Shown piece after piece: positions 1,468 to 16,649 of a DNA stretch of 20,000 bases. The stretch lies in IMG/VR virus record IMGVR_UViG_2512564001_000011; one strand, written 5' to 3'. This DNA comes from an uncultured virus (IMG/VR IMGVR_UViG_2512564001_000011) (Duplodnaviria; Heunggongvirae; Uroviricota; Caudoviricetes). The notes beneath the pieces are model-generated. The model made no database searches and was not told the origin of the DNA. It saw only the letters and a program-made list of their open reading frames with translations. The translations under genes were made by a program, and so were the position numbers. How positions within the stretch are numbered: the first letter of the stretch is position 1; each line of letters begins with the position of its first letter.

Positions 1468-1550
1468 TTCATAGGTTTATTTTTTAAGGCTTAATCCTTT
1501 TTTTAGATACAGTCATGTATTTTTATTATAATAACTTTTGGTGATTAAAT

Positions 1551-1805
1551 ATGATGAAATTTTTAACTTTTTTTATAATAGTCTATTTTTCTATTCCAAC
1601 TTTTGCTCAAAGATTACCATTTTCTCCTCATAAACCAAATAATAATTCCCATTTATCTAAAAATTGTCCTCCAAATCTTTATTATGATTATAGAAATAGG
1701 ATTTGCCACAACTTAGATTATTCAATTACAGCTATTCCGGCTGAATGTCCAGATGACTATCCTATAGATAATAGAAGTGGGCTTTTTTATCAGTGTAAGT
1801 CTTAA
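1551..1805 (+). CDS. Small putative secreted protein with four Cys
   Basis: Sec-type signal MMKFLTFFIIVYFSIPTFA-Q; GGTGA upstream; Cys pairs in CPPNLYYDYRNRIC and CPDDYPIDNRSGLFYQC. Confidence 0.6.
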   Translation: MMKFLTFFIIVYFSIPTFAQRLPFSPHKPNNNSHLSKNCPPNLYYDYRNRICHNLDYSITAIPAECPDDYPIDNRSGLFYQCKS

Positions 1806-2083
1806 TAATTTTATATATTTAAATGTAAAAATTTAATGTATAGATATTATTAATATAAAACCCTATTTTATTTTCATTTTTCGCGGTGATAAAAATTTGA
1901 CTAAACCAGTAGTCCTAAAAGCAGTATTGGTAACTTTTAATCCGCCCTTACTGCATTTCAAAAAATTACCGCGCATAAAAATGGGATTGACGTGTGGTGC
2001 CAGCGAGGTAGAGGACTTGTTATATTTTACTCCCCCTACCTATCTGATCCTAAAATTAATTTTAATGTGAATCCAAAATTATA

Positions 2084-2338
2084 CTACTCCGCCTTAAATC
2101 CAGGTTTTCCGTTTTTGGCGCGCCATTCTTTTATTTCTTTTATGATAGCATTAGCGCTACCGTCATTATTTTCTGGATAGTAAATTAAGTCTGAACCACT
2201 AGGATGCCCTGTAACACTAATAAAATGTTCCAAATAATCGTCCTGCATTTTCTCATCACCTTCACAATTAATTATTGCCTCTATTATTCTTTTAAATTCA
2301 GATTCAGTGTAATCACTAATACTATTTTTAAGTTTCAT
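2084..2338 (-). CDS. Colicin E DNase / S-pyocin immunity protein
   Basis: [15 protein letters not shown]...[11 protein letters not shown]...[14 protein letters not shown] has the Im2/7/8/9 family signature and lies directly downstream of the toxin. Confidence 0.95.
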
Positions 2339-2343
2339 TATAA

Positions 2344-4153
2344 TTAACCTCGATGAATATCAATATGTCGTTTAGGTGTAGTTACTCTAATATTATCAAT
2401 ATCGTATACTTCACCATCTTTACTAATCGGTTTATCGTGATGTAGTTCAAATGAACGCCTCCCTCCAATAGTATCTTTATTTCTAGCTCGCGGAGCTAAA
2501 CCTTGACTCATTCTTTTTTTATTGCTAGGAATAAATTGCTTACTTAGTTCAGGATCTTTAGATACTTCTTGCCAAAATTTATTCCTGAATTCATCAAAAC
2601 TATTAAACTTTTTACCTCGTAATTTATCCGCAATCTGACTAGGTATTGGCGCACCAAGTTCTTTCCCCGCTTCTTCAAGCCATTTATCACCGACTTTTTT
2701 TCCGCTGCCACTGACAATACCTGGCTGATTTCGTTTTTTTTCCTTTTCAAGTTTATCTTCTGCCGCTCTTTTTTTATCTTCTGCCTTTTTGCGGCTTTCT
2801 ATGAAAGGCTGTAATTTTTTCTTCTGCTGTTCTATTTTTTTATGTGCATCAAGTAAACGTTCACCTAATGTACTAGAGAAAGCCCCAATTAAGACAGGCC
2901 CATAAGAGGTGATTATTTTACTATTATTGGTTTCTCTTTTTACTATTTCAGTAACATAAGCCTTAATCCCTTTTTGCAGTAGAATATTAATCAATGACAT
3001 ATCTCTTACTGCAATTTCTTTGCCCGTACTTTTTCGTTGTTCAGGAGTTTGTTGATATATCAAGGGATATTTTGCTGGATTAGATAATGTTAATCCTTCG
3101 GGTGTTGCCTGTAATTTATTTAGCGCTGACAATTCAGTTTGGTATTGTTTATCAATAGCAATGAAAGATTTATTGGCTATATCAAATTCCAATTGGGCGG
3201 CTTCAATGGGATGCATTGATGTCCATTCCCTTATAGCTTCTTCAACTTGCTTCTTTTCTTCTTTTTGATTGGGTATTCGTGATACAGAAACATAAATTGG
3301 TTCATGTTTTCCATCAAAATGAACAAAAGCATGATAACTATCTTTGGTTGATGGAGATGAAAGATAGGGATTAATCGCTGGCGTTGAATTGACCTTGGCT
3401 GAATGCTTAACTTGATTTTTATCAGGATTAACTCGGATATGCATAGGCTTCATGCCAGGGATAATTTGTGCTGTATATACATTAGGCTTGCTTGTCTTTT
3501 CTGCTTTAATAACCGCGATATTTGAAGTTTTTTGTTGCTTTGTAATTGCCATTTCGTGTTTTTTGTTATTCATATTAATAGCAAGTTCTGATAATACCTT
3601 TGTGGGAGCTTCGGTTCTTTTTGTTATATCACTAAGGGGAATTTCACTTACAATACTCGCCGGTAAACTAGTTATTTTATATCCTTGTGTTTTATCAGCT
3701 ATACTGAATGCTCGAGAATTAGTTAACATTTCTTGTTCTTTTTTTTCTGACACAATTGTATCATTTGGATATAAAGCCCCAGCAATAACACCCCCCTAGA
3801 AGACTTCCTGCATAAGGTAATGCCTTACTTAAATAATTAATACCTTGTACCAAAGCTGAATCAATTGCTGTCCAATTAATAGTAAAACCCAATACACCAT
3901 TAACAGGATAAACAGTCATTGGGATTGCTACATAAGACATTGTTGTCATCGCTTCGGGAGTTTTACTTAAATCAAGATTGTGTCGTGAAGAGGAGTTATG
4001 CCCTCCTCCATCTCCTCTTCCCTCTGGACCAGTCCCTCGCCCACTGCTACTTCCTCCTCCCCAAGGACTATTTTCTGAACTCCATCCAGAATGGTCAGAA
4101 GCATTAACTCCACGTTTTTTTCTTGTTTTTTGACTGTCTTTTTTTTCGTCCAT
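2344..4153 (-). pseudogene. Colicin E-type HNH DNase bacteriocin split by a frameshift at a G6 run
   Basis: N-terminal ORF has the TolB-box-like DHSGWSSENSPW and a Gly-rich segment. C-terminal ORF has a cloacin-type translocation region and the HNH domain [29 protein letters not shown]. Removing one base from CCCCCC (3791-3796) fuses them into 602 codons. Confidence 0.88.
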
Positions 4154-4174
4154 GCTAGCCTCTTTTAATTAAAT

Positions 4175-4194
4175 AACTGTATATATATACAGTA
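4175..4194. promoter_or_regulatory. LexA (SOS) box upstream of the bacteriocin
   Basis: CTGTATATATATACAG at 4177-4192 is a perfect consensus core about 24 nt upstream of the ATG. Confidence 0.93.
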
Positions 4195-4448
4195 CTTTAT
4201 GTTTATTAATTGTTAATTTCAAGGCTGATAAAATAAAAAACCAGCCATTGATAAGCTGGTTTGAAGTTTTCCCTGGTGCTAGCATGAAGTGGAGGAAATT
4301 TTATAATTTTAAATTTGCATTATGATGTCTTGAGTGATTGATGGTAGTCAGTATTTATATTCTTCGTACTCTCTATTATGGAGATAGATATTCTTGTCAT
4401 AGTGTGTTAAGGCTCAAAGAATATTGAGCCTTTGAAGTGATTTACTCG

Positions 4449-4727
4449 TTAATTTTTCCGATACTCAACCTTGCATTTTTCCAGTACAAAAATAAACAAA
4501 GGCACTTGAAACATAGCAAGTAAGCTATTAAGTGAGTAAAAATCCAACTTAATTTTTATATCTTCCAAGGTCTGTTTTATTGCTGGATAGCTAACAGAAC
4601 GTAAATGAGCAATTTCCCCTTGAGATAATCCAAGACAAAATAGTATTGCTGTTTCAAATTGGGCTGGCGTTAGCTCTGGAAACACGTCATGTAGCTCAGC
4701 AACGTTAGTTAAATCGAACATTCTCAT
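4449..4727 (-). CDS. LuxR-like HTH transcriptional regulator (copy 1)
   Basis: FPELTPAQFETAILFCLGLSQGEIAHLRSVS..AIKQTLEDIKIKL resembles a LuxR C-terminal HTH; ATGA overlap with the upstream gene; conserved second copy. Confidence 0.75.
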   Translation of the reverse strand: MRMFDLTNVAELHDVFPELTPAQFETAILFCLGLSQGEIAHLRSVSYPAIKQTLEDIKIKLDFYSLNSLLAMFQVPLFIFVLEKCKVEYRKN

Positions 4728-4906
4728 GCTACGCCCTCCATCACTGGCTTCCGTCCAGCCCAGATAAGGCGATCGTTTTTGAATAGCACGTTGAATATAC
4801 GACGTTCATTGCGAGTGAATGCTACTTTGCTAGAAGGTGTATTGGAATTTCTAGGGATGATCCAGTAGATATCAATAAATTTTGAGCAAGATTGGATTGT
4901 AGCCAT
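4724..4906 (-). CDS. Icd-like (host cell division inhibitor / ash-region) small protein (copy 1)
   Basis: Lies directly after the C4 target site; RBS GAGG; ends LIWAGRKP; conserved second copy. Confidence 0.65.
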   Translation of the reverse strand: MATIQSCSKFIDIYWIIPRNSNTPSSKVAFTRNERRIFNVLFKNDRLIWAGRKPVMEGVA

Positions 4907-4959
4907 AATTGCGGCCTCTTTCGTAGTTTTTAAAACCTCGCTCCCGATGCTAAACGGGG

Positions 4960-5040
4960 TGGCGAGACGTAAGTAGGGTTAGCATACTGGCACGAAAGAA
5001 ACCAGCGAACCTTTTAGGTTCCCCTGCTACGCCTCGCCAT
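4960..5040 (-). ncRNA. C4-type antisense RNA (copy 1)
   Basis: Closing stem TGGCGAGGCGTAG / CTTACGTCTCGCCA with inner hairpins. Exposed CTTTCGT and ATGCTAA are complementary to ACGAAAG and TTAGCAT targets found both upstream (5101-5121) and downstream (4918-4953). Confidence 0.85.
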
Positions 5041-5072
5041 AATAAGGACGTAACTTCGGTTTATGACGAACA

Positions 5073-5182
5073 TAAAAAAACCGCATTAAGCGGTAGTCCG
5101 CTTTCGTACTCAGGATGCTAAACCTGACACTAGATTAAGCTAGTGTTTTTAAACTATAGCTAATGCTCTAATTCATAATCAA
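5073..5182 (-). promoter_or_regulatory. Promoter, c4 a1/b1 target leader and attenuator (copy 1)
   Basis: Minus strand reads TTGATT..TATAGT, CACTAG hairpin, TCAGG-TTTAGCAT-CCTGA, ACGAAAG, then ACCGC-TTAAT-GCGGT followed by a U-tract. Confidence 0.75.
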
Positions 5183-5195
5183 GATGTTTTTGTTA

Positions 5196-5423
5196 TTAAA
5201 TTTTATCTTCAAGTTTATCCAGTTCATAATCCGATAAACCTGTAGAGAGTTTTACAGTATTACGATCAACACCATTGTCTAAAAATTGTTTAGCAAGATT
5301 CAGAGTAGTTTCTTTTTTTTCTTTTTGTCTACCCTCTTGAATCCCTTCAATTTTACCTCGTTGTAATCCTTCTTGAATGCCTTCAACTTTGCCTTCTTGT
5401 CTCAATGCTTGAGCAATAGTCAT
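5196..5423 (-). CDS. Internally initiated RpnS antitoxin, 75 aa (copy 1)
   Basis: In-frame ATG (MTIAQ) preceded by AAGGAG-CACTT. Confidence 0.75.
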   Translation of the reverse strand: MTIAQALRQEGKVEGIQEGLQRGKIEGIQEGRQKEKKETTLNLAKQFLDNGVDRNTVKLSTGLSDYELDKLEDKI

Positions 5424-6152
5424 AAGTGCTCCTTCGTGTTTTTCTGATTGTTTGGCTATCTCGGTGATAAATTCCATTGGTTTTTGTGCATTCCCTTCTT
5501 GGATGAGATAGTTAAACATAGTGATAATCTGATTATCGGTATAATAATTATACGACAAGAGTTTAACAATACTATCCAGTAACTCAGTCATATCCCGTCT
5601 TCGAATGTGTTTTTGGAGTAACTCAAGCAATGCTATTCGCTTGTGTTGCATAATCTCGCCATCATCAAGCGTGGTGACATCAGCTAATTTAAAGGGATTG
5701 TTATAGATATTTTCTGCCAGCTTTCTATCTTCAAAGCAGTCAAGCCAATGAGTGCTATAGGGGTGAGGACTTTGTTCACCGCAGTAGAACAGGATAGGAA
5801 AAACTAACGGTAATTGCTTATTTCCCTGCTCTAGATGCTTGTGCATAGCAGACATACTATATCGCATTAATCGCCATGCAATGAGTTTATCAGGGGTGGA
5901 CTGATGCTCAATTAATACGTAGATATATCCACTTCCCTTTGTTGTGCTGACTGAATACAGAATATCACTCTGGTAATTTTTCATCTCACTATCGATAAAT
6001 GAGCCAGATTCCACTTTTAGGCTATCTAAGTTACACAGGGCTTTAATCTCATCTGGTAGCCAGATATCAAAGAAATCTTTTGCCGTCTCTTTTTCGCTTA
6101 AAAACTGTTTGAATATGGCATCATGGGGAGTGGGGGTAAATTTTTTAGTCAT
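5196..6152 (-). CDS. Rpn family recombination-promoting nuclease (YhgA-like, PD-(D/E)XK), copy 1
   Basis: TPHDAIFK, SDILYS, IEHQS and LLELLQKHIR motifs; C-terminal EG repeats. Confidence 0.95.
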   Translation of the reverse strand: MTKKFTPTPHDAIFKQFLSEKETAKDFFDIWLPDEIKALCNLDSLKVESGSFIDSEMKNYQSDILYSVSTTKGSGYIYVLIEHQSTPDKLIAWRLMRYSMSAMHKHLEQGNKQLPLVFPILFYCGEQSPHPYSTHWLDCFEDRKLAENIYNNPFKLADVTTLDDGEIMQHKRIALLELLQKHIRRRDMTELLDSIVKLLSYNYYTDNQIITMFNYLIQEGNAQKPMEFITEIAKQSEKHEGALMTIAQALRQEGKVEGIQEGLQRGKIEGIQEGRQKEKKETTLNLAKQFLDNGVDRNTVKLSTGLSDYELDKLEDKI

Positions 6153-6270
6153 TAAGGTTAATGCCTTGTGTTGCCTAACTATGAGTTTACGTTGTTATTT
6201 TTATAAATCCTAATGAAACGCTGTATTCTATATCATATGTTATTTTATTAATTTTAATTTGTTTTTATTG

Positions 6271-6314
6271 TTGATTTTATATTCAATTTACTTATACTGT
6301 TTATTTATACAGCT
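6271..6314 (+). promoter_or_regulatory. Second LexA box overlapping a sigma70-like promoter
   Basis: TACTGTTTATTTATACAG (core 6297-6312); TTGATT-N16-TATACT at 6271-6298. Confidence 0.7.
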
Positions 6315-6529
6315 CTTATGAATTATGTTAGTTTTACTATAGAACTATAGATAAGAATGAAAGCAGCCAAAAAGTAAGAAAAACTTTTAGTAATAATCAT
6401 AAAGGTGTACAAAAAAAACGATAAAATAACATTAATTTAGTTTAAAGTAATTTTTTATCTTTAATCATTGAAATTAAAACATATGATTAATATATTAAAA
6501 ATAATAATAAAAATGGAAAGGAAATAATT

Positions 6530-6781
6530 ATGTACGAAATTGATCTGTCGAAAAATGAAGGCGAAAATAAATCGGAAACTGGAATTATGTCAACAATGAA
6601 AGGTTCTACTGTTAATAATGAAGAAAGATTTATAAAATTTAAAGAACCAAATTTAAATATTAATATTAATGTTAATGTTGATGGTTCTTTTAGTGCAAAA
6701 GATTTAATCTCGATTGTTAAGGATTTTACAAATGAATATATTAAGAATATAAGTAAAATAACATCTTCAATAACAGAATAA
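6530..6781 (+). CDS. Hypothetical protein, very AT-rich
   Basis: 83-codon ORF with AAGGA RBS; no recognisable motif. Confidence 0.5.
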   Translation: MYEIDLSKNEGENKSETGIMSTMKGSTVNNEERFIKFKEPNLNININVNVDGSFSAKDLISIVKDFTNEYIKNISKITSSITE

Positions 6782-7033
6782 TAATAGATTTTTAAGTAAA
6801 GTTAATCAGAGTGAAAATTTTAAATTTTTGCAAGTAACTATTTTTACTCTGATATATTTTTCTCTTGATTTGATTTTTAATGAAATAAAATAACAACAAA
6901 AAATAAGAATCTAAAAGATTCCTTTTGGCATCTTAATAGAATCTTAATTATTTTGTAAATTTTTATCAATAAAACAAAAAATGAAAAATAGCATTTTCAA
7001 AATGCAAAATTTTAAGTTTTCAAAAATCCTTTT

Positions 7034-8062
7034 TTAACTCGCAAATCCGCTATCTCCCTTCCTAAATCGTCGATATTGCTTATCACTAGTCCGCCAGTTG
7101 AACGCCACTCTAACTTTAGCATCATCGTCAGAAGGTTCCGATTCTGCATCTACATGAATCAATGACTCATCGGTTTCTGGTTCAGTCGATTTAAATACAT
7201 GTTTGAGTGCTCCGCCGGATGCAATAAATTTCAGATAGTGAACCTAATTAAAATACTCCAACATCCATTCACGATTATTCACTAATGTCTCTGGTTTAAC
7301 GGAATAATTAAACGCCTTTAAGACTTCTACCGCTGCTTTATCCGGTGTTCCCTTCACTGCTCGAACATCAACAATCGGCAGGGTATCCAATTTCATGCAT
7401 TCACCCCAAATTTCTGACCAGCGAGATTGTTTTGTGTAATTATCTCCACGAAACCAAGAAGACGATACCATCAGAAGACAATGGAAATGAGGATGGGCAT
7501 AATTTTTACGTTTAGTTTCACAAGTTACTTCTGTTTTCCTAATCCAGCCCTTTACGGACTTAAACTCTTTACGTTTAACAAATCTATGCCAAGCTAGGTT
7601 CATTAATTTTAACTCATCCCTTAAGGAATCAATAGGAACATTAGGCACGGTTAAGGTCATAAATACCCAACGCGCTTTAGAATAATCATTAAGAATTTCA
7701 GGGAGTGATTTTTTAAACATAGCCATATGCCTCAATGATCTTCTTCCATCGCATACTGGACAGTGGCGACAGTGACAGAAATAAACCTCTATTAACTTTA
7801 TAAGAAATTCACCCGTCTCTTTATCAATATGGGGATAATATTTCAAAATATCAGCACAAGAGCTTATTCTTGTTGACCATTTATCGAAATCAGTTCCTAA
7901 TAAGACCTCAGAAAGTAATTCACTTGCAGCTTTCATTTTATCAAATTTAGCATCTTTTGGACTCATTTCTGAAAGTGATATATCATTAGATATGTCTTTA
8001 GTATTTACAGAATTAAGCGGTTCGCATATGCTATACGAACTTCCGACAATGAAGTTAGACAT
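7034..8062 (-). pseudogene. Rolling-circle initiator (Rep_1, pC194/pUB110 family) with one in-frame TAG
   Basis: FC..RHCPVC, FMTLTVPN, HPHFH (HUH) and YSVKP (catalytic Tyr) motifs. After TAG at 7244-7246 the frame continues VHYLKFIASGGALKHVF...FNW...KQYRR to TAA at 7034-7036 (342 codons in total). Confidence 0.88.
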
Positions 8063-8067
8063 TTAAA

Positions 8068-8129
8068 AAGCCTTGTTTGATTTGAGATTAAGCACCTACA
8101 AATCTACAAGGCTTCTTTATACTTGTCAA
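8068..8129. promoter_or_regulatory. rep promoter and leader hairpin (probable antisense copy-control region)
   Basis: Minus-strand TTGACA-N17-TAGATT; stem AAGCCTTGT..GATTTG / CAAATC.ACAAGGCTT at 8068-8114. Confidence 0.55.
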
Positions 8130-8194
8130 ATGTTAACTAAAGCCAGTAACCACAAGGGTTAAACAACTAAATTCCATCCGCCAATACGTTTCTA

Positions 8195-8213
8195 TATTAT
8201 CAAGTAAAGAAGA
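8195..8213 (-). other. Double-strand origin (nick site) of pC194 type
   Basis: Minus strand TCTTCTTTACTTGATAATA contains the family core CTTG^ATA, just upstream of rep. Confidence 0.8.
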
Positions 8214-8221
8214 GACTCCTG

Positions 8222-8625
8222 AATCGCTTAAAAAATAAGCGAAAATCTAACCTCTCAAATCGCTTCCAAATTTCAGGCAAAAATATAGCCAACGGGCTGA
8301 GTTGGCTAAATAATGTGATGGAATTTTTATTTTTAATTTTATGTAGCGTTCTTATTGGCAATAAGAACATTAATGAGCAAATCCATCATAAGCATTCTAC
8401 GAAACGAAATTTGCCTAGAAGATCGCATCTTCGACAATTAACATCAGACTCGCTGTCATATCGTGCCAATAGGCTTTGCAGGGATGCTACGCATGGGTTA
8501 CGTGAAATATATCAATCCCTCACCGCTTCGCGGGCTTCGGCGATTTGATTATCGAAGTTTTCTGTTACGACTGAGTGTCGCCTTCCATGCCTGACGGCAT
8601 CAAAAATCTAAAATCGCCTGTAATC
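8222..8625. repeat. Copy 2 of the non-coding direct repeat (putative sso region)
   Basis: Matches 344-430 and 477-731. Confidence 0.85.
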
Positions 8626-8778
8626 AATTATAAGCCTATCAAATTAAAAATCGCTACCCATTGAGTTGCCTATATCAAGAAAACGCCGTAGAGAGCGTTA
8701 CAGGTAGCTTAAAATTGATTTTTTGCCGTAGCATGTTAAGACTCAACAAATATTGAACCTTTAAAGTGATTTAATTTT

Positions 8779-9057
8779 TTAATTTTTTCGATACTCAACC
8801 TTGCATTTTTCTAATACGAAAATAAACAAACGCACTTGAAACATGGCAAGCAAGTTATTGAGTGAGTAAAAATTTAACTTAACTTTAATATCTTCAAGTG
8901 TTTGATTAATTGCTGGATAACTCACAGAGCGTAGATGAGCAATCTCCCCTTGAGATAGTCCAAGACAGAACAATATTGCTGTTTCAAATTGAGCTGGCGT
9001 TAGCTCTGGAAACACGTCATGTAATTCAGCAACGTTAGTTAAATCAAACATTCTCAT
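8779..9057 (-). CDS. LuxR-like HTH transcriptional regulator (copy 2)
   Basis: Nearly identical protein to 4449-4727. Confidence 0.75.
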   Translation of the reverse strand: MRMFDLTNVAELHDVFPELTPAQFETAILFCLGLSQGEIAHLRSVSYPAINQTLEDIKVKLNFYSLNNLLAMFQVRLFIFVLEKCKVEYRKN

Positions 9058-9251
9058 GCTACGACCTCCATCACTGGCTTCCGTCCAGCCCAGATAAGGC
9101 GATCGTTTTTGAATAACATTTTGAATATACGACGGTCATTACGAGTAAATGAGACTTTGCTAGAAGGTGTATTGGAGTTTCTAGGAATGATCCAGTAGGT
9201 ATCAATAAATTTAGATTTTTTTAGATGAGTTTGATGTTGGATAGTCGCCAT
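9054..9251 (-). CDS. Icd-like small protein (copy 2), 65 aa
   Basis: Start re-assigned to MATIQ (ATG at 9251, RBS GGAG) by homology with copy 1; the longer ORF call runs through the C4 RNA. Confidence 0.65.
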   Translation of the reverse strand: MATIQHQTHLKKSKFIDTYWIIPRNSNTPSSKVSFTRNDRRIFKMLFKNDRLIWAGRKPVMEVVA

Positions 9252-9313
9252 AGGTGCGATCTCCGTTAGTTTGTTTTGGAAATCACCGCTAGAGGTTACA
9301 ATCTCTGTAATGG

Positions 9314-9391
9314 CGGTGACGTTATTAAGGTTGTAACTACTGGTACTAACGGAACCAGCCAATCCTAAGATTGCCCTAACAACGCCACCAT
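9314..9391 (-). ncRNA. C4-type antisense RNA (copy 2)
   Basis: Closing stem GGTGGCGTTGTTAGGG / CCTTAATAACGTCACC. Exposed CCGTTAGTA and GTTACAA are complementary to targets at 9449-9472 and 9263-9301. Confidence 0.85.
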
Positions 9392-9544
9392 AGAATACAG
9401 GAGGACATCGTCTGTGACATAAAAAAAGACGCTAGGCGTCTAATGTCGCCGTTAGTACTTTCAGGGTTACAAACCTGACACTAGATTTTTCTAGTGCTTT
9501 TTAACTATAACTAATGATTTAACCCATAAGCAATATTTTTATGA

Positions 9545-9748
9545 TTAAATTTTGTTTTCAAGTTGATTAAGCTGCTCATCTGATAATCCCGTAGAAATTT
9601 TCACCATATTACGATCAGCTCCATTAGCTAGAAACTGTTTAGCTAGTTTAATTCTTTCTTGTTGCATTCCCTCTTGAATACCTTCAATTTTACCTCTTTG
9701 TAATCCTTCTTGGATCCCTTCTTGTCTTAATGCTTGAGCAATAGTCAT
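9545..9748 (-). CDS. Internally initiated RpnS antitoxin, 67 aa (copy 2)
   Basis: In-frame AAGGAG-CACTT-ATG. Confidence 0.75.
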   Translation of the reverse strand: MTIAQALRQEGIQEGLQRGKIEGIQEGMQQERIKLAKQFLANGADRNMVKISTGLSDEQLNQLENKI

Positions 9749-10477
9749 AAGTGCTCCTTCGTGTTTTTCTGATTGTTTGGCTATCTCGGTGATAAATTCC
9801 ATTGGTTTTTGTGCATTCCCTTCTTGGATGAGATAGTTAAACATAGTGATAATCTGATTATCGGTATAATAATTATACGACAAGAGTTTAACAATACTAT
9901 CCAGTAACTCAGTCATATCCCGTCTTCGAATGTGTTTTTGGAGTAACTCAAGCAATGCTATTCGCTTGTGTTGCATAATCTCGCCATCATCAAGCGTGGT
10001 GACATCAGCTAATTTAAAGGGATTGTTATAGATATTTTCTGCCAGCTTTCTATCTTCAAAGCAGTCAAGCCAATGAGTGCTATAGGGGTGAGGACTTTGT
10101 TCACCGCAGTAGAACAGGATAGGAAAAACTAACGGTAATTGCTTATTTCCCTGCTCTAAATGCTTATGCATAGCAGACATACTATAACGCATTAATCGCC
10201 ATGCAATGAGCTTGTCAGGGGTGGACTGATGCTCAATTAACACGTAGATATATCCGCTGCCCTTTGTTGTGCTGACTGAATACAGAATATCACTCTGATA
10301 GTTTTTCATCTCACTATCAACAAATGACCCTGATTCTACTTTTAAGCTGTCTAAGTCACACAGGGCTTTAATCTCATCAGGCAACCAAATATCGAAGAAA
10401 TCTTTAGCCGTCTCTTTCTCACTTAAAAACTGTTTAAATATGGCATCATGGGGAGTGGGGGTAAATTTTTTAGTCAT
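9545..10477 (-). CDS. Rpn family nuclease, copy 2
   Basis: Same motifs as copy 1; nearly identical up to the internal Met, with a divergent C-terminus. Confidence 0.95.
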   Translation of the reverse strand: MTKKFTPTPHDAIFKQFLSEKETAKDFFDIWLPDEIKALCDLDSLKVESGSFVDSEMKNYQSDILYSVSTTKGSGYIYVLIEHQSTPDKLIAWRLMRYSMSAMHKHLEQGNKQLPLVFPILFYCGEQSPHPYSTHWLDCFEDRKLAENIYNNPFKLADVTTLDDGEIMQHKRIALLELLQKHIRRRDMTELLDSIVKLLSYNYYTDNQIITMFNYLIQEGNAQKPMEFITEIAKQSEKHEGALMTIAQALRQEGIQEGLQRGKIEGIQEGMQQERIKLAKQFLANGADRNMVKISTGLSDEQLNQLENKI

Positions 10478-10909
10478 TAAGGTTAATGCCTTGTTTTACC
10501 TAAAACTTGATTGACGAGTTTATCACAAGACACTAATATATTTTTGTTGAGAGTAATTCTCATCTTCTTCAAGTTTCCTTTTAGTAAATTATAGAAAATA
10601 GTATTATTCAATGCGCTGTTGTCATTTGCAGCGCATTTTTATTTTTCCCTTTCATACTTGCCGCAGAAATCAATTTTAAGCGCCATAGAACGCGCTGTAC
10701 GGCGTTTTCGTTCTTTCAGTCATCAAATGGCATTCATTCAAGCGCAGAATAGCTTGTATGGGTTGATATTGAGTTTAGGTATTAAAGACATATCAAGCAC
10801 ACACTACTAACTGCGAACCAACCCTGCGTACTTCGTTGCGCACCAAATATTGAGAACTTAGCAAAACTATACATAAAGCGTGACCGCGCCCCTCTGGAAG
10901 TTCGAGTGA

Positions 10910-10967
10910 TCTTCCGCTTCCTCGCCCATTCGCTCGCTGCGCTCGGTCATGGACTCCGGCGAGCGGG
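10910..10967. other. ssiA / primosome assembly site of ColE1/ColE2-type plasmids
   Basis: TCTTCCGCTTCCTCGCCCATTCGCTCGCTGCGCTCGGTCATGGACTCCGGCGAGCGG closely follows the pBR322/ColE1 sequence CTTCCGCTTCCTCGCTCACTGACTCGCTGCGCTCGGTCGTTCGGCTGCGGCGAGCGG. Confidence 0.75.
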
Positions 10968-11068
10968 CTGAGCTAAGAAAAACTGCAATGTTTCGGGATC
11001 AAGGGAAAAAGCCCATCAAACCCACGCCCCACAAGGGATTATGGCAAAAAACAAAAACCCCCTGCGGG

Positions 11069-11103
11069 GGCTGTTATCTGATATAGGCTTGTTTTCAGTG
11101 CAA
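11069..11103 (-). other. ColE2-type origin, second variant
   Basis: GGCTGTTATCTGATATAGG core (the TATCAGATAACAG primer site on the minus strand), directly after the stop codon of a Rep fragment. Confidence 0.8.
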
Positions 11104-11245
11104 TCAAAGCATGCCTTTTTGCTTCCGGTAATAATACGTCCGCCGACTGATGCCTAACTCCGTCCACGGCTTTCGCTGCTCGATGGAACCTACGATAATG
11201 CTACCTTCTGGCCTACCACCGCCATGACTAATCTTGCCGCCTCTA
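11104..11245 (-). pseudogene. Orphan C-terminal DNA-binding segment of a second ColE2-type Rep
   Basis: RGGKISHGGGRP...KPWTELGISRRTYYYRKQKGML aligns with the end of the intact Rep (SHGGGRP..EPWFKLGISRRTYFRWRQAGKI). Confidence 0.8.
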
Positions 11246-11524
11246 GAATAATTTTTTTTCTGAACATTCGCACGGTCACCATACCAATCGGAGTGCAATA
11301 CCACAACTTTCGCACCCTAACCAAATTCGCCCAACCACACTCAACCCTAGAGAAGGGAAGCTGCAAAGTGAGAAAGTGCAAATTCTCAAGGCCAGTGCAC
11401 TACTTTCGCAGTTTCTATACCAGACTGAGCTACTTTAACTGATTTTTCTTTTAATACCCGTCAAGCCCAGAGCTGGCCTGGCTCTACAGCGTTCTACCTA
11501 ACCAAGGTCAAAACCACCCCGAGA

Positions 11525-11556
11525 GGCTGTTATCTGATATAGGTTGTTTAGTGCCA
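11525..11556 (-). other. ColE2-type origin cognate to the intact Rep
   Basis: GGCTGTTATCTGATATAGGTTGTTTAGTGCCA, a few bp past the rep stop codon. Confidence 0.85.
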
Positions 11557-11563
11557 CGCACGG

Positions 11564-12466
11564 TCAAATTTTGCCAGCCTGTCTCCAACGAAAATACGTC
11601 CGGCGGCTAATTCCAAGTTTAAACCAAGGTTCACCAAGAGACGGCCTGCCCCCACCATGACTCTTTCTTCCTCTTGCAGCCTGTATATCTGGCGTATGCG
11701 TCCTAGCCACGTACTCAGCAAAGGTTTTCTCAGTGAAGCGTTTATGCGTCCATTTAGCGATACTCTTAGCGATCGCTTTCACCTCTGGCTCACTGAGGGG
11801 AACGGGGAATTGCACATTGTAGCCCATTGCACGCTCAAAGCACGCAGCGAACCACTGTGCGAAAGCAGGCCAGCCACGACGAATAGCCCTATACGCCCAC
11901 TTGCGCGTTTTCTCAAAGACAGTGCAATTACGGCCTAGTCCATAAGTTGACTCAATTAACGGTGCATTCGCAGCGCTTAAATCAAGGTAATCAGCAAGCT
12001 CATCCAGAGTGTAAGGTTCGTGTCGCCATTGTGTAATTTGCCAATCTGAATGATTAGGATTCTTGCAAAGCAGATTGCCGTAATTCGGATCTGCATCCAA
12101 TTTCATACGAAGTCCATTCTGAACCGCAGCACCGTATTTCAATGCAGCCATGCTTCCATCTGGTGCAGTGCGAACGCCGGGGTTGACGATGTAGTATCCG
12201 TGCGCATGTGTGTTTGCTTTTGTCATTGCACTGATGTTGAATGGAGGGCAACCTCTTTCATCCCAACCGATAGCACCGCCTTGATAATCAAGATCGTAGG
12301 CAAATACAGCCATTGAGTGAGGCGGATTATGCTGAATGTAGCGCTTTAAGATGGCTTGCGCTTGAGGCAAGATTCGCACGCCACAGCAAAAATCATCGGT
12401 GCAATAAGGCTTGCGAGGTAGATTCTGGTTGAAGTAGTCGAGCGCTTTGTTATTCAAGAGCACCAA
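11564..12466 (-). CDS. ColE2-family replication initiator (primase Rep; Replicase, PriCT-1 and HTH)
   Basis: LPRKPYCTDDF..GVRILP, HAH, VRTAPD, CKNP, PYTLDELADYLDL, GLGRNC and THTPDIQAARGRK motifs. Exact start codon uncertain. Confidence 0.93.
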   Translation of the reverse strand: MVLLNNKALDYFNQNLPRKPYCTDDFCCGVRILPQAQAILKRYIQHNPPHSMAVFAYDLDYQGGAIGWDERGCPPFNISAMTKANTHAHGYYIVNPGVRTAPDGSMAALKYGAAVQNGLRMKLDADPNYGNLLCKNPNHSDWQITQWRHEPYTLDELADYLDLSAANAPLIESTYGLGRNCTVFEKTRKWAYRAIRRGWPAFAQWFAACFERAMGYNVQFPVPLSEPEVKAIAKSIAKWTHKRFTEKTFAEYVARTHTPDIQAARGRKSHGGGRPSLGEPWFKLGISRRTYFRWRQAGKI

Positions 12467-12514
12467 ACTTATGGCAGATCTGTTGTTTTAGGCTAGACAT
12501 GTGATATTATTCCT

Positions 12515-12600
12515 CTTGAAAAACTGTTGTTTTACGAGTACGCCCTAAATGATCATGCTTTCTGCCAAGAATTCACATGGTTTTTAGGGCTTTGCTTTTT
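12515..12600 (+). ncRNA. Probable RNA I-like antisense copy-control RNA
   Basis: Antisense to the rep leader; long stem GCCCTAAA..CATG / CATG..TTTAGGGC (12542-12590) followed by U-rich sequence; TATTAT just upstream. Confidence 0.55.
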
Positions 12601-12642
12601 CTGCACATACTTTACTCAAATCTCTTCATAATGTCATCTCCG

Positions 12643-12779
12643 TTGAAATTAGCGCCCTAACGCGGTATATTCCATACGTTGCCACTAATGGGCAATCAGG
12701 GTTAAGAGCCTGAATGTACAAGCGGACTACCGCTTATTAATGCGGTTTTTTTATGTCCGTCGTAAACCGAAGTTGCGTC
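12643..12779 (+). promoter_or_regulatory. Third c4 a1/b1 leader (promoter, target hairpin, attenuator); C4 RNA body deleted
   Basis: TTGAAA-N17-TATATT; TCAGG-GTTAAGAG-CCTGA; 12721-12779 is an inverted near-copy of 5047-5102. Confidence 0.7.
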
Positions 12780-13369
12780 TGGAGCAAGGAAACAAGCAGT
12801 TGCCCGTGGTGATCCCGCTTCTCTTCTACCACGGCACCAAGTCGCCCTATCCCTATACCACTCATTGGTTAGACTGTTTTTCAGATCGGAAGTTGGCTGA
12901 ATCTGTGTACGCTCAGGCATTCCCACTCGTTGATCTGACAGTGATAGAAGACGAGGAAATCTTAAGCCATCGAAAAGTGGCACTGATGGAAATCGTCCAA
13001 AAGCACATTCGCACCCGTGATATGCTAGAATTGGCAGTAGAAATCGCTAGTTTGTTGGAAAATTGGCAATTTTCCAAAGAACAGTGTAATACTTTGATAC
13101 AGTATCTATTATTGGCGGGAAATACAGCAGACGGCGATGTGTTTATTCGTAAACTGGCAGAACACGCGCCTAGTTATCGGGAGGATTTTATGACAATTGC
13201 AGAACAGCTTGAAGCTAGAGGTGAGGCTAGAGGCTACCAGCTAGGCCAAAAGGATGCTTCTACTAAAATTGCTCAACAACTGCTAGCCAATGGCGCAGAG
13301 CGCAATCTGATAAAGATTGCTACTGGTTTGTCTGATGAAGAACTAGACACGCTAGCAACTAAGATTTAA
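12779..13369 (+). pseudogene. 5'-truncated rpn (third, divergent copy) lacking the catalytic N-terminus
   Basis: Rpn homology begins abruptly at LEQGNKQLP; the SDILYS and IEHQS motifs are absent. Confidence 0.85.
13190..13369 (+). CDS. Intact RpnS antitoxin, 59 aa, inside the truncated rpn
   Basis: GGAGG-ATTTT-ATG, MTIAEQLEARG...TGLSDEEL. Confidence 0.7.
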   Translation: MTIAEQLEARGEARGYQLGQKDASTKIAQQLLANGAERNLIKIATGLSDEELDTLATKI

Positions 13370-13758
13370 ATGTTTATTTTTACGCTATGTTAAAGTACAA
13401 TCTGTTCACCTAGTAATCCGCCTAAATGAGCCTGATTATTAGCACAGGGAAGTTGCGCCTAAAATAAATTACTTAGTAAAAGAACCTAATATACTGAAAA
13501 TAAAGACTTTTATCTATCCTTCATCATCTTATTAATACATCTATAGTCCTCGATATCTTTTTATATAAATCTATTTAAGTTAATTGATATCACAGCTTGT
13601 CTGATTAAAATTCAAACAAAAAAATAAACTTGGTAGCCTGAAACGAAAGTTTTTATTGGCTAGGGATTGCTATTGCCTATGATTCCCATACCCAAAACAT
13701 AAATCCTCAATCAATTTTGGTGGGGGCTTTTCTTTTTTTCACACCAGATCACAACTGA

Positions 13759-13858
13759 NNNNNNNNNNNNNNNNNNNNNNNNNNNNNNNNNNNNNNNNNN
13801 NNNNNNNNNNNNNNNNNNNNNNNNNNNNNNNNNNNNNNNNNNNNNNNNNNNNNNNNNN
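13759..13858. other. Assembly gap (100 N)
   Basis: Run of N; adjacency of the two sides is not proven. Confidence 1.
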
Positions 13859-13948
13859 AGGCTGGCTACTTAGCAACGTCTGGCACAGTTTCAGATAACT
13901 CGTGGTATTGTCTGGCGTTTACCTGTTGCAGTGAGTTGATGAGGTTAA

Positions 13949-14009
13949 TTTATCTTAATGATAAATAAAAATCAAGGCAAATTGATAAATTATTTATCAA
14001 ATAAGACAA
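13949..14009. promoter_or_regulatory. OL operators / PL of immunity module 1
   Basis: TTTATC-TTAAT-GATAAA plus degenerate copies; the same motif recurs between cI and cro. Confidence 0.7.
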
Positions 14010-14065
14010 TGAAAATTTAACCCATTGAATAATAGAGGTAAATTGAATGTTAAAAATTTTATCAT

Positions 14066-14089
14066 AAAAAAGCCAGCTATTTAGCTGGC
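14066..14089 (-). terminator. Intrinsic terminator after cI
   Basis: GCCAGCTA-AA-TAGCTGGC followed by T6 on the minus strand. Confidence 0.75.
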
Positions 14090-14129
14090 GTTAGTTGTGG
14101 GTGATTGGCGTATAAGTGTGTATAAGCAG

Positions 14130-14861
14130 CTATCCTAGCCTAGAGTAATTTATATTCCATTTACCTATTACAAATCCATTTATACTTAATCGCTCCTCGT
14201 TATTGCAGTTTATTTCCCATTTTTCATACAGGTTGTTATCACTAATTACTAATAATTTATCTCCAGATAATTGCAGTCGTTTTATATGCATATTTTCACC
14301 AAAAGTGAATGCATATATTCCATCACCTATATATTGTTTAATTGTTTTGTCAATAACTACAAGAGAACCAGGATCTATTGTACCCAGCATACTGTCACCT
14401 ACGGCTGTAATAATAGCTAATGATGTAGAGGGTCTTTCTCCGAACATTTTCAAGGCATGTTCTGGGTTTATTTCAACCGCCTTTATAATATCTGGATACT
14501 CACTATACACTCTACCTCCTCCACAACTATACTCTATGTCGTAATGATTTATTCTGTATATATGATCAGTATAGGTTTTGGAGGAATTTTGTAAAATGAA
14601 AGGATCATCTTTTTTAGATGGATTTAAAGTTTTGGTATGAATAACATCCATCCAACCAATAGGAAGGTTTAATGATTTTTCAATACGACGGGCGATTTTA
14701 TCACCGATATTACGTATTGGATTATTACCACTGATCTGACTAAGTTGAGCAGCAGGTATGCCAATTTTATCAGCTAACTGAGATTTTTTATTTTTTCCTG
14801 ATACAGTGAAATCCTGAATCAAGGCATGCAAATTAGCACGTCTAATGTCTTTTGTTTCCAT
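14130..14861 (-). CDS. CI-like repressor with S24 peptidase domain
   Basis: N-terminal HTH, CGGG cleavage region, GDSM catalytic Ser and IKRL Lys. Start taken as METKDIRR because the longer call overlaps the operators. Confidence 0.92.
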   Translation of the reverse strand: METKDIRRANLHALIQDFTVSGKNKKSQLADKIGIPAAQLSQISGNNPIRNIGDKIARRIEKSLNLPIGWMDVIHTKTLNPSKKDDPFILQNSSKTYTDHIYRINHYDIEYSCGGGRVYSEYPDIIKAVEINPEHALKMFGERPSTSLAIITAVGDSMLGTIDPGSLVVIDKTIKQYIGDGIYAFTFGENMHIKRLQLSGDKLLVISDNNLYEKWEINCNNEERLSINGFVIGKWNINYSRLG

Positions 14862-14879
14862 ATTTATATATTGGCATCT

Positions 14880-14945
14880 TTTATCAATTTGATAAATGTA
14901 CAAATTGGTAAATTATTCTTGTTATTTTTTTATCATTAAGATAAA
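14880..14945. promoter_or_regulatory. OR operators of module 1
   Basis: TTTATC-AATTT-GATAAA (14880-14896) and TTTATC-ATTAA-GATAAA (14929-14945). Confidence 0.75.
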
Positions 14946-14981
14946 GTAATCTTGTTTTATTTAACTTTAAAGGTAAATTGT

Positions 14982-15212
14982 ATGACAAACGATTTACTCC
15001 GTTGGAGAAAAGAATCTACCCAAGATGATTGGGTACGTCTTGCTCGACTAGCAGGGACGAGTGTCGGTTACTTAAACCTAGTAGCTTATGGATACCGCAG
15101 GGCATCTCCCAAAAAAGCTGAGCAAATCGAATTTGCAACTAAGCATTTTAATTACTTACCCGTAAAAAAAGAATTATTAGTTTTTACTACTTTAAAAATT
15201 AGCACAAATTAG
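14982..15212 (+). CDS. Cro-like regulator (module 1)
   Basis: Divergent from cI; HTH LARLAGTSVGYLNLVAYGYRRAS; AAGGT RBS before ATG 14982. Confidence 0.85.
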   Translation: MTNDLLRWRKESTQDDWVRLARLAGTSVGYLNLVAYGYRRASPKKAEQIEFATKHFNYLPVKKELLVFTTLKISTN

Positions 15213-15218
15213 CTACAC

Positions 15219-15254
15219 CGCTCTTTAACAACCTGGCCTCCCTGAAATTGGGAG
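15219..15254 (+). promoter_or_regulatory. nutR-like site (boxA and boxB)
   Basis: CGCTCTTTAACA directly after cro, then the hairpin CTCCC-TGAAATT-GGGAG, resembling lambda boxB. Confidence 0.75.
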
Positions 15255-15347
15255 ATTTTACATTCCCAACCCATTGGGAGGGAATACTATTATCTGAAAC
15301 TTATGGACTAAGTGTAGGATAAGATTGCTGCAAAGACTATCAAATCG

Positions 15348-15590
15348 TTATGCAATTCTTAATTTTGTGGCTCTTGTTTGTGATACAGCAAAGATTGATG
15401 TGTGAGGAAGTAAAGCAGCATTTTTATGCTTCACTGGTTTACTCTGACCATAACACTTACGGCGTGCATCACGAATAATAGCTAACTGATAGTCACTGGC
15501 TGTAGGATGAAATTCGTTAATGTGCTCGTAAGATTTATTCGGATTGAAGCGTTTAGAACATATAGGGCATATAGCAGATGTTTTCTTCAT
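15348..15590 (-). CDS. Hypothetical protein with a C2H2-like zinc finger
   Basis: CPIC-x11-H-x4-H; AAGGA RBS before ATG 15590; first gene of the module 2 leftward operon. Confidence 0.6.
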   Translation of the reverse strand: MKKTSAICPICSKRFNPNKSYEHINEFHPTASDYQLAIIRDARRKCYGQSKPVKHKNAALLPHTSIFAVSQTRATKLRIA

Positions 15591-15644
15591 AATATTTTTC
15601 CTTAACAAATTAGATGAATAAATAGTCCTGTTTGTAATGGAAAA

Positions 15645-15718
15645 TGGGTTCTGCCACTTCGGTACATTGTCTCTTGAGAGATACGCCGTCCGCCCGTGCG
15701 TTAGAGTGCGCCGTTCAC
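15645..15718 (-). ncRNA. putL-like antiterminator RNA
   Basis: Minus strand GAACGGCGCACTCTAACGCACGGG...GAAGTGGCAGAACCCA resembles HK022 put (recalled from memory) and has a paralog after cro2. Confidence 0.6.
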
Positions 15719-15760
15719 TTTTTTCAATCTCTGGCTGTTTGCCTTTGATACGAGAATAAT

Positions 15761-15790
15761 ATGCGTAAAAAGCAAATGTGTAAAGCGCAT
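15761..15790. promoter_or_regulatory. OL operators of module 2
   Basis: ATGCGTAAAAAGCAA and ATGTGTAAAGCGCAT, variants of TGCG-N5-CGCA also found at 16340-16402. Confidence 0.65.
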
Positions 15791-15923
15791 TTTTAATCTC
15801 GACAAAAATTTTAATTCCATAAATTTTTATTTTATTGATTTTTAAGTTTTTTATTGAGATGTTGATGCGATAAAAGAATAAATAAGCCTATAACAATAGG
15901 CTATTAAGGGAAGAGATAGTAAT

Positions 15924-16319: not shown

Positions 16320-16339
16320 ATTATAATTAAATATTCTTT

Positions 16340-16402
16340 TTGCGTTTTACACAAAGCGTCTTGCACATATTTGAAAGTTGAATTATTATGCGCATAACGC
16401 AT
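16340..16402. promoter_or_regulatory. OR operators of module 2
   Basis: TTGCGTTTTACACAA, AAGCGTCTTGCACAT and ATGCGCATAACGCAT. Confidence 0.7.
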
Positions 16403-16417
16403 CTAAAGGAGATCTTT

Positions 16418-16630: not shown

Positions 16631-16649
16631 ATTCATTACCATAATCACC

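Follow-up and report, generated by a model that had tools for sequence, protein, structure and literature searches.

Two intact cassettes on an Arsenophonus plasmid

We analyzed a 20,000-nucleotide (nt) stretch of DNA (the window, to which all positions refer unless a record is named) that is filed in IMG/VR as an uncultured virus (IMGVR_UViG_2512564001_000011), and focus on a block of ~1.8 kb that it carries twice, in which a gene for an Rpn nuclease is followed by a C4 antisense-RNA switch, a small open reading frame (ORF) and the gene for a stand-alone helix-turn-helix (HTH) protein. Positions 1-13739 are plasmid paPv12 of Arsenophonus nasoniae strain aPv (NZ_CP123516.1, 16,832 bp, deposited as circular and complete); by megablast, identity to that record is 100.0% over 4300-8300, and 8300-13500 is fully covered. 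Positions 13740-13758 are the first bases of the paPv12 record again and are followed by a run of 100 N (13759-13858), and the DNA to the right of this run matches other A. nasoniae records (37.8 kb) at ~95%, not paPv12. The phage-like right part (13859-20000) may therefore not be contiguous with the cassettes.

Pairwise MAFFT alignment places the homology limits of the intact blocks at 6178 to 4405 (copy 1) and 10503 to 8734 (copy 2), both read on the minus strand. These are the limits that a first-pass annotation of the same DNA had given for two intact copies. A repeat search found copy 1/copy 2 pairs spaced 4325-4351 nt apart. The order within the block is rpn, a promoter-like site, an IsrK-like leader with the target sites a1 and b1, the C4 gene, the target sites a2 and b2, the small ORF (60-65 amino acids, aa) and the 92-aa HTH gene:

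Copy 1
5196-6152, minus strand: rpn, 318 aa, Rpn/YhgA-like PD-(D/E)xK nuclease (PF04754 Transposase_31, E = 9.2e-80)
5196-5423, minus strand: putative RpnS-1, 75 aa from an internal ATG, covering the four-residue-repeat region
5153-5182, minus strand: promoter-like site TTGATT-18-TATAGT for the switch operon (consensus scan)
5074-5146, minus strand: IsrK-like leader (Rfam RF01394, 51.6 bits)
4955-5044, minus strand: C4 RNA (Rfam RF01695, 64.3 bits, full length 1-87)
4907-4954, minus strand: leader with a2 and b2, exact complements of a' and b' in C4, laid out as a2/b2 of phage P1
4724-4906, minus strand: small ORF, 60 aa, in the position of icd in P1 (ORF list; PHROG 6928, E = 3e-9)
4449-4727, minus strand: stand-alone LuxR-type HTH protein, 92 aa, ATGA start (AlphaFold and Foldseek)
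4238-4262, minus strand: strong intrinsic terminator closing the switch operon (9-bp stem, then a T run)

Copy 2
9545-10477, minus strand: rpn, 310 aa (PF04754, E = 3.4e-80)
9545-9748, minus strand: putative RpnS-2, 67 aa, internal start
9422-9497, minus strand: IsrK-like leader (RF01394, 60.7 bits)
9309-9395, minus strand: C4 RNA (RF01695, 73.3 bits, full length 1-87)
9054-9251, minus strand: small ORF, 65 aa, ATG at 9251
8779-9057, minus strand: LuxR-type HTH protein, 92 aa, ATGA start, 95% identical to the copy 1 protein

Both intact copies pass the gathering scores of the Rfam covariance models for C4 (45 bits) and for isrK (50 bits), and the Rpn protein of copy 1 scores 175.6 bits against NCBIfam TIGR01784 (cutoff 52.1). 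The anatomy of the block and the membership of its rpn, C4 and IsrK-like parts in their families are thus direct observations. In copy 1 the leader consists of hairpin 1, hairpin 2 with a1 in its loop, b1 and an intrinsic terminator (5080-5094). The promoter-like site is kept in copy 2, as judged by alignment, and occupies the position of the annotated P1c4 -10 element TATAGT in P1.

The two copies carry different versions of the pairing sites. In copy 1, site a (TTAGCAT) occurs at 5115-5121 (a1) and, within a hairpin loop, at 4947-4953 (a2); site b (ACGAAAG) occurs at 5101-5107 (b1) and at 4918-4924 (b2), where it runs into a GAGG Shine-Dalgarno sequence; the complements in C4 lie at 4979-4985 (a') and, in the loop of hairpin 2, at 4992-4998 (b'). 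The corresponding positions for copy 2 are 9466-9472 (a1) and 9295-9301 (a2) for site a (TTGTAAC), 9449-9456 (b1) and 9263-9270 (b2) for site b (ACTAACGG), and 9331-9337 (a') and 9345-9352 (b') for the C4 complements. Each site flanks its own C4, with one occurrence on either side, and has an exact complement within that C4; all complements of a1, b1, a2 and b2 are exact over 7-9 nt in both copies. Site b2 begins 17-18 nt ahead of the small-ORF ATG and extends into the Shine-Dalgarno sequence of that ORF, and the stop codon of the small ORF overlaps the HTH start as ATGA in both copies. The P1 record annotates promoters, a1, b1, c4, a2 and b2 just before icd, with ant overlapping icd, and in the P1 sequence the hairpins, sites, terminator-like hairpin and Shine-Dalgarno sequence succeed one another as they do in the window.

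Divergence between the two copies is concentrated in the switch and in the end of rpn. DNA identity is 91.7% over rpn codons 1-108 (0 gap columns), 99.8% over the rpn centre (0 gap columns, longest identical run 430 nt), 80.9% over the rpn tail (24 gap columns), 80% over the promoter and hairpins, 51.4% over the switch core from a1 to b2 (10 gap columns), 88.8% over the small ORF (15 gap columns) and 88.5% over the HTH gene (0 gap columns). The nuclease body, Icd-like and HTH proteins had been described as nearly invariant, which is accurate at the protein level (99% identity for the Rpn body, 95% for the HTH protein) but somewhat overstated for the DNA. The co-variation of the pairing sites is observed directly: a change in the C4 loops goes with changes in all four targets, with full compensation at six places per copy, and neither C4 matches the sites of the other copy. 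The proposal that specificity is re-coded in each copy therefore holds.

The product of the small ORF had been called Icd-like. This name reflects its position only, since we detected no NCBIfam match at E ≤ 0.1, no tblastn match in 50,697 phage records at E ≤ 0.01 and no BLASTP alignment with P1 Icd at E ≤ 100. Its 16 relatives, all unnamed and 54-91% identical, come mostly from Arsenophonus and otherwise from Hamiltonella and Symbiopectobacterium. A match to the Pfam family Phage_ASH was considered as a sign of an Ash/Icd protein and rejected, as it covers residues 4-48 of a longer ORF (9054-9362), most of which are encoded by C4 and leader DNA ahead of the conserved ATG. On the DNA, this match (9219-9353, minus strand) falls mainly on the C4 gene and leader and not on the conserved small ORF, and translated sequence of an RNA gene may account in part for the C-terminal portion of the Phage_ASH model.

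The fold class of the HTH protein comes from structure comparison. Its AlphaFold model (predicted local distance difference test, pLDDT, 83.6) has a long extra C-terminal helix, and the top Foldseek matches are the C-terminal domains of VraR, LiaR, NarL and DosR. These top matches have template modeling (TM) scores of 0.77-0.85 on the target and root-mean-square deviations of 0.9-1.5 Å over 56-63 residues, and all listed matches are of the LuxR/NarL type. On this model, the protein is a stand-alone four-helix LuxR-type DNA-binding domain. A HMMER search over 1.84 billion representatives returned 56 relatives at E ≤ 0.001; among those aligned, 12 of 37 match Sigma70_r4_2 and 6 of 37 match GerE. 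No match to PDB sequences was found at E ≤ 1.

Variation of the RNA code and of the Rpn tail

To describe the code more broadly we used 29 C4 RNAs, namely those of nine plasmid cassettes (the two window copies and Arsenophonus plasmid records labeled here L002-L004, L006-L008 and L010) and those of 20 of the 21 Rfam C4 loci in the draft genome of A. nasoniae DSM 15247 (G001; loci L014-L033). Each of the 29 contains complements of its own a and b sites. When C4 RNAs were compared with the sites of other loci (812 ordered non-cognate pairs), a match at both sites occurred in only 12 pairs, all of which join duplicates of the same type (copy 2 and L006; L004, L007 and L020; L010 and L030; L028 and L029); 19 more match at one site. 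The nine plasmid cassettes hold seven codes and the 20 genomic loci 19, for a total of 24 distinct a/b pairs, and the five cassettes of strain aPv have five different codes. Among 121 sampled Enterobacterales genomes, 16 have C4: eleven have a single match and the others 3, 4, 4, 8 and 21. The 21 matches are those of DSM 15247, the highest count in the sample, the next highest being 8. The genes downstream of the genomic C4 loci in this strain are antirepressor-like, replication-like, PAS-LuxR regulators, or the small ORF and HTH.

A second, protein-based variation is found at the end of Rpn. In both copies GAAGGAG precedes the candidate internal ATG of RpnS. In the RpnL/RpnS system, as described in main-text passages of PMC10400941, a small C-terminal protein serves as antitoxin, and which RpnL it blocks depends on the number of four-residue repeats; the same text also reports Rpn genes on plasmids. 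By analogy, the C-terminal RpnS product of the cassettes would be an antitoxin, which we infer from that published system. The tails of the two copies are two 12-nt indels apart. In the eight full cassettes read, Rpn residues 1-230 are 94-99% identical and gap-free in all 28 pairs, whereas the tails are gapped and 56-94% identical, in agreement with the earlier proposal that the RpnS tail differs between copies, here in 12-nt units. The eight proteins measure 300, 302, 302, 310, 314, 314, 318 and 318 aa, and the one of 300 aa has a different end. RNA code and tail come in different pairings: the C4 RNAs of copy 2 and L006 are identical, their tails only 79% identical. Thus, the C4 code and the Rpn tail are not inherited as one unit.

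Distribution of the cassette and make-up of paPv12

A megablast search with the cassette returned 70 plasmid records, all from Arsenophonus, and the DNA of the small ORF and HTH gene is found in 24 records, 23 of them Arsenophonus. With eight full copies read in these plasmids, the cassette is clearly not a mere local duplication. Full cassettes lie on Rep_1 rolling-circle plasmids (L004, 6.4 kb; L008, 7.2 kb; copy 1), beside a ColE2-type unit (copy 2) and on records encoding TerS, a protelomerase or both (L002, L003, L006 and L007). The same C4 RNA can be found in two strains on two different backbones (copy 2 and L006; L004 and L007). The idea of a module that is portable among unrelated replicons is therefore sustained for several backbones within Arsenophonus, but the four-part order was not found outside this genus in the genomes searched.

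The four records with protelomerase and/or TerS measure 7.9-11.6 kb and each encodes a 584-616-aa protein matching no Pfam family; L006 also carries an acyl-homoserine lactone synthase/LuxR pair. These records could be mini phage-plasmids, satellites or assembly fragments.

The HTH gene is found in 2 of 401 sampled Enterobacterales genomes, and a search of genome contigs recovered only Arsenophonus DSM 15247 and one weak metagenome-assembled genome. No description of the rpn/C4/small ORF/HTH combination was found in the literature searched, subscription journals and supplements aside. The main text of the A. nasoniae genome paper (PMC7157526) contains none of the terms "Rpn," "protelomerase," "rolling" or "small plasmid."

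We read the block as two independent devices of known type, an rpn toxin-antitoxin gene and a switch of the P1 immI type, that are co-inherited among small Arsenophonus plasmids, and assign this reading a probability of about 0.7. Several observations weigh against it. Promoter-like sites in the region are not above chance (6 found, 7.7 expected). The window HTH protein matches no Pfam family at E ≤ 0.01, and its Foldseek E-values are 0.015-0.16, none of them ≤ 0.001. The small ORF belongs to no known family. The site strings were picked from cognate matches, which leaves the off-diagonal comparison as the sole independent control on the code. A duplex-energy matrix of C4 cores versus targets did not cleanly separate the cognate pairs, being noisy, with stems that pair non-specifically, and was set aside; exact-site matching was used in its place. 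Lastly, 7 of the 20 genomic C4 loci have a1/b1 but lack a2/b2 within 110 nt downstream, and the switch logic may therefore differ among C4 loci.

The odds are about even that rpn and the switch are functionally unlinked, their adjacency being a historical accident spread by recombination. The switch, small ORF and HTH gene stand without rpn directly upstream on the 137-kb plasmid L010 and at genomic locus L030. In the DSM 15247 genome the full block is present at only one of 20 C4 loci, with one more locus having a 49% identical Rpn ~700 nt upstream. An obligatory rpn link therefore does not stand. In addition, 13 other Enterobacterales genomes contributed 20 C4 loci, none of which has an Rpn, small ORF or HTH gene within 2.5 kb. 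The re-assortment of C4 code and Rpn tail points the same way. On the other hand, rpn is directly upstream of the switch in all eight full cassettes; in copy 1 its stop (5196) lies ~15 nt before the -35 element of the switch (5177-5182), and the IsrK-like terminator is the first terminator past rpn. Moreover, an HTH relative and an Rpn gene are also neighbors in Sodalis phage phiSG1, in another order and without C4, and a third, partial copy on paPv12 likewise joins an IsrK-like element to rpn.

This third copy and the replicons around the cassettes bear on how the tandem arose. The relevant features are:

7244-8062, minus strand: Rep_1 rolling-circle replication protein (PF01446, E = 3.1e-54)
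8199-8629: R400b, the region upstream of Rep_1, conserved in stand-alone plasmids
321-735: R400a, a second copy with no rep gene beside it (82-92% identical to 8199-8629)
10504-10880: conserved flank upstream of rpn copy 2, of rolling-circle-plasmid type (375 bp, 93.6% identical to L004 3117-3491)
11564-12466, minus strand: ColE2-type primase Rep (Replicase PF03090, E = 1.6e-30; PriCT_1 PF08708, E = 7.7e-7)
12678-12752, plus strand: orphan IsrK-like element of the third copy (RF01394, 32.6 bits, below the gathering score)
12740-13369, plus strand: 3' fragment of rpn, a 209-aa ORF (Pfam E = 6e-31, profile positions 99-201 of 203)

The Pfam matches confirm that, as first annotated, one copy neighbors a rolling-circle Rep and the other a ColE2 primase Rep. 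The third copy had been described as a deleted version of the cassette. A remnant is indeed present (12678-13369), but it derives from another rpn lineage and is permuted in order, and is not an internal deletion of the same cassette. Its IsrK-like element is 84% identical to that of L010, and the junction fuses this L010-type element, ~30 nt past its terminator, to rpn at codon ~107. The fragment has lost the N-terminal nuclease half and kept an RpnS-type tail, and its closest relative is on a Sodalis plasmid (75.7%). The ColE2 segment has a G+C content of 45-49%, versus ~35-38% elsewhere. Judging from this composition and from the Sodalis affinity of the adjoining rpn fragment, the ColE2 part is foreign in origin together with that fragment. 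Nearby, the C-terminal ~35 residues of a 66-aa ORF (11104-11304, minus strand) resemble, by eye, the C-terminus of the ColE2-type Rep at 11564-12466; this ORF may be the remnant of a second ColE2-type rep gene.

The remaining DNA between the two cassettes is that of a small rolling-circle plasmid. The window Rep_1 is 88% identical to the Rep of both L004 and L008. R400b is 91% identical to L008 3296-3702 and 83% to L004 440-830, each directly upstream of rep, and the spacer at 6179-7243 shares 96.6% identity with L008. The L004 counterpart (3117-3491) of the conserved flank of rpn copy 2 adjoins the L004 rpn. Read on the minus strand, the 4.33 kb from rpn of copy 2 to rpn of copy 1 correspond to exactly one circuit of a Rep_1 plasmid (rpn, switch, HTH, R400, Rep_1, spacer), and the rest of paPv12 holds the other cassette, an SOS-type bacteriocin unit, a ProQ/FinO gene, R400a, an integrase, a terminase gene and the ColE2 unit. 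R400a and R400b form a direct repeat spaced 7.88 kb apart, R400a being 92% identical to the L004 copy.

From this arrangement the tandem appears best read as a cointegrate formed via the shared cassette, in which a Rep_1 plasmid would have fused into an integrase/terminase/foreign-ColE2 element. Cointegration is the simpler explanation of the tandem. The 430-nt identical tract in the shared cassette lies where the crossover would fall. We regard it as rather unlikely that the tandem is instead an assembly artefact, or one state of a resolving cointegrate that would otherwise exist as a ~4.3-kb Rep_1 plasmid and a ~12.5-kb element with one cassette each. The repeat spacing of 4325-4330 nt, exactly one Rep_1 plasmid turn, would suit such a case, as would the position of the 430-nt identical run at the expected crossover and the marking of other small records of the same assembly as linear. 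Against this, the public record was deposited as complete and circular, and the cassettes are ~10% apart outside the identical tract and so are not a collapsed duplicate. Every public sequencing run contained at most 42% of the sampled words, and the Logan contigs from four runs were short, none bridging 8400-8800. The conclusions on the cassettes do not depend on the topology, because both cassettes are in the same strain either way.

An element of ~240 bp with three direct copies and one inverted copy of GTACGCA lies near several cassettes. It is found in L004 (3117-3355, 5386-5518 and 5605-5730), L008 (6165-6378 and 2015-2229), L007 (1870-2109) and the window (10640-10880); it stands on both sides of the cassette in the stand-alone Rep_1 plasmids L004 and L008 and upstream of rpn elsewhere. 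In a palindrome search for an HTH operator, the heptamer was not enriched in the window (7 found, 4.4 expected). On its sequence, the element could be a protein-binding array, possibly the HTH operator, or a recombination substrate.

Downstream of copy 1 lies the bacteriocin unit:

2084-4192, minus strand: SOS-type bacteriocin unit (Pfam; palindrome read)
3761-4153 and 2344-3753, minus strand: colicin-like ORFs, both matching Cloacin, the second also the Col-Pyo DNase domain
2084-2338, minus strand: bacteriocin immunity gene (Pfam)

We considered whether the HTH protein drives this bacteriocin and rejected the idea, since the terminator at 4238-4262 and a LexA-box-like palindrome at 4177-4192 stand between them. 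With these two elements separating it from the HTH gene, the bacteriocin reads as an ordinary SOS unit. The two colicin-like ORFs may result from a break in one gene or represent a genuine two-gene form.

Two further observations concern the window as a sequence record. In a base-by-base comparison, register with NZ_CP123516.1 is lost at a one-base indel at ~1788, within ORF 1551-1805, where the coding sequence is 94 aa in RefSeq versus 84 aa in the window. To the right of the N run, the genes are of lambdoid immunity/replication type:

14130-14903: S24 CI-like repressor
17452-18291: replication protein
18517-19923: DnaB-like helicase

Proposed working and related systems

From the layout of the block we infer transcription of the switch, processing of C4, a decoy role for the leader RNA and production of RpnS. 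In the proposed working, rpn would encode a PD-(D/E)xK nuclease toxin whose C-terminal RpnS, probably made from the internal start, would neutralize only its own RpnL, with the four-residue repeat count setting RpnS-RpnL specificity. A promoter just after rpn would give a leader with a1, b1 and the terminator, ending as a short IsrK-like RNA. Read-through would yield the C4 RNA and then an mRNA with a2 in a hairpin loop and b2 over the ribosome-binding site of the small ORF. Pairing of C4 with a2 and b2 would block translation of the small ORF and, via the ATGA overlap, of the HTH gene, and the short leader RNA, which carries a1 and b1, could titrate C4 and so turn the switch on. A private a/b code per cassette would allow co-resident copies to function without cross-repression.

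The first-pass annotation had proposed an addiction/immunity module, in which RpnL and the small ORF and/or HTH product would be harmful once de-repressed, C4 and RpnS would restrain them for as long as the plasmid stays in the cell, and private codes would permit coexistence of related plasmids without cross-immunity. We find this improbable. It has in its favor that RpnL and RpnS are a toxin-antitoxin pair in the published text consulted (PMC10400941), that the five cassettes of strain aPv combine their five C4 codes with five Rpn tails, and that the switch on L010 follows a RelE/ParE pair and also has a partition operon nearby. However, the small ORF is unrelated to Icd, and such a module would need a stable toxin mRNA and an unstable antisense RNA, properties that are not readable from sequence. 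Given seven equally frequent types, a draw of five would yield five distinct codes by chance in ~15% of cases, and the re-assortment of code and tail seen in copy 2 and L006 (tails 79% identical) also speaks against this reading.

More distant relatives of the HTH protein (35-56% identical) occur in conjugative or mobilizable plasmids, which raises another possibility, namely that it is a TraJ-like activator acting in trans on a helper (a conjugative plasmid or an N15-type phage-plasmid), with the small replicons as hitchhikers or satellites whose private RNA switch would time the triggering of transfer or packaging genes of the helper. Of four loci read that carry such relatives, three have the HTH gene at the head of a transfer operon: L035 has the order relaxase, HTH relative (named "TraJ protein" by one source), TraY and pil genes; L036 has HTH relative, RfaH and VirB3; and L037, a Fukatsuia symbiotica plasmid, has TrfA, HTH relative, TraY and a NusG-family gene. 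In L038 the relative adjoins parA, not transfer genes. In L037 the start of the HTH relative is overlapped in antisense by a weak FinP-like match (3431-3507, minus strand; 39.8 bits, below the gathering score of 45). No C4 was found at E ≤ 0.01 in L035-L038, L005, L009 or L011.

Three contexts have a gene for a ProQ/FinO-family RNA chaperone close to the HTH gene or convergent with it (window 931-1467, plus strand; L006 4052-4588; L009 6943-7287); in L006 and L009 it is located at the HTH gene's 3' end. Its product is a candidate helper for C4-target pairing.

We consider a TraJ-like role doubtful all the same. Although the loci heading transfer operons, the FinP-like match, the ProQ/FinO genes and the presence of TerS, protelomerase or TerL on small cassette-bearing records would agree with it, the relatives are only 35-56% identical, and the small records marked "linear" could be fragments of the assembly. 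The window HTH copies have no transfer genes beside them, and the cassette plasmids carry no transfer, oriT or relaxase genes and are typed as non-mobilizable by MOB-suite. Least probable of all is a wider scheme of an address-coded C4 network in which plasmid switch and Rpn would form a two-key identity cassette, with a private RNA code and a private RpnS-RpnL pairing, and a TraJ-like output would let each small replicon call independently on a helper plasmid or phage-plasmid, a new type of satellite control borne by plasmids.

If two co-inherited devices are the correct reading, P1-type antisense "immunity" would extend past the control of phage antirepressors and would have been recruited by plasmids to gate a transcription factor. 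The roughly twenty mutually orthogonal switch versions in a single symbiont genome would then form a natural library of antisense/target pairs, and a system for studying how many mobile elements in one cell escape regulatory cross-talk. The protein-based RpnS repeat code would diversify in parallel with the RNA code, offering a side-by-side evolutionary comparison.

The closest known relative of the switch is the immI region of phages P1 and P7. In these phages the difference in specificity resides in the a/b sites. Like immI, the cassettes have a C4 RNA above the gathering score, the order promoter, a1, b1, terminator-like hairpin, C4, a2, b2/Shine-Dalgarno and small ORF, and an ATGA overlap. 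Unlike immI, they have a small ORF unrelated to Icd and an output that is a LuxR-type HTH protein and not an antirepressor, and their hosts are small plasmids, with 24 distinct a/b pairs among 29 loci.

F-like plasmids control fertility through FinP, FinO and TraJ, where an antisense RNA occludes the ribosome-binding site of an activator. In the cassettes, too, an antisense RNA is directed at a ribosome-binding site that precedes the gene for a small plasmid activator; the TraJ annotation also occurs among HTH relatives at the head of transfer operons, and the ProQ/FinO-family gene is near in three contexts. Here, however, the RNA is C4 and would act via a coupled leader ORF, and the plasmids carry no transfer genes. 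The resemblance is best regarded as a functional analogy only.

For the leader, the nearest parallel is the isrK-orf45-anrP locus of Salmonella Gifsy-1. In passages of PMC4825925, read-through into a small ORF that is AUGA-coupled to an output gene is described, with the short IsrK RNA activating translation of the downstream ORFs in trans. The cassettes share an IsrK-family leader with its own terminator, above the gathering score in both intact copies, but have a C4 gene between leader and small ORF, and their output is not an antirepressor.

With RpnL/RpnS, as presented in the main-text passages of PMC10400941, the cassettes share membership of the Rpn family, a tail that varies in multiples of four residues and an internal ATG behind a strong Shine-Dalgarno sequence. 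Those passages, supplements aside, do not mention any fixed link between such genes and an antisense-RNA switch. Overall, variation of the a/b sites, which are annotated in the P1 record, and of the four-residue repeats of RpnS, found in the same passages of PMC10400941, is already described. What is new in the cassettes is the combination, the plasmid setting, an output other than an antirepressor and the scale of code diversity in one genome.

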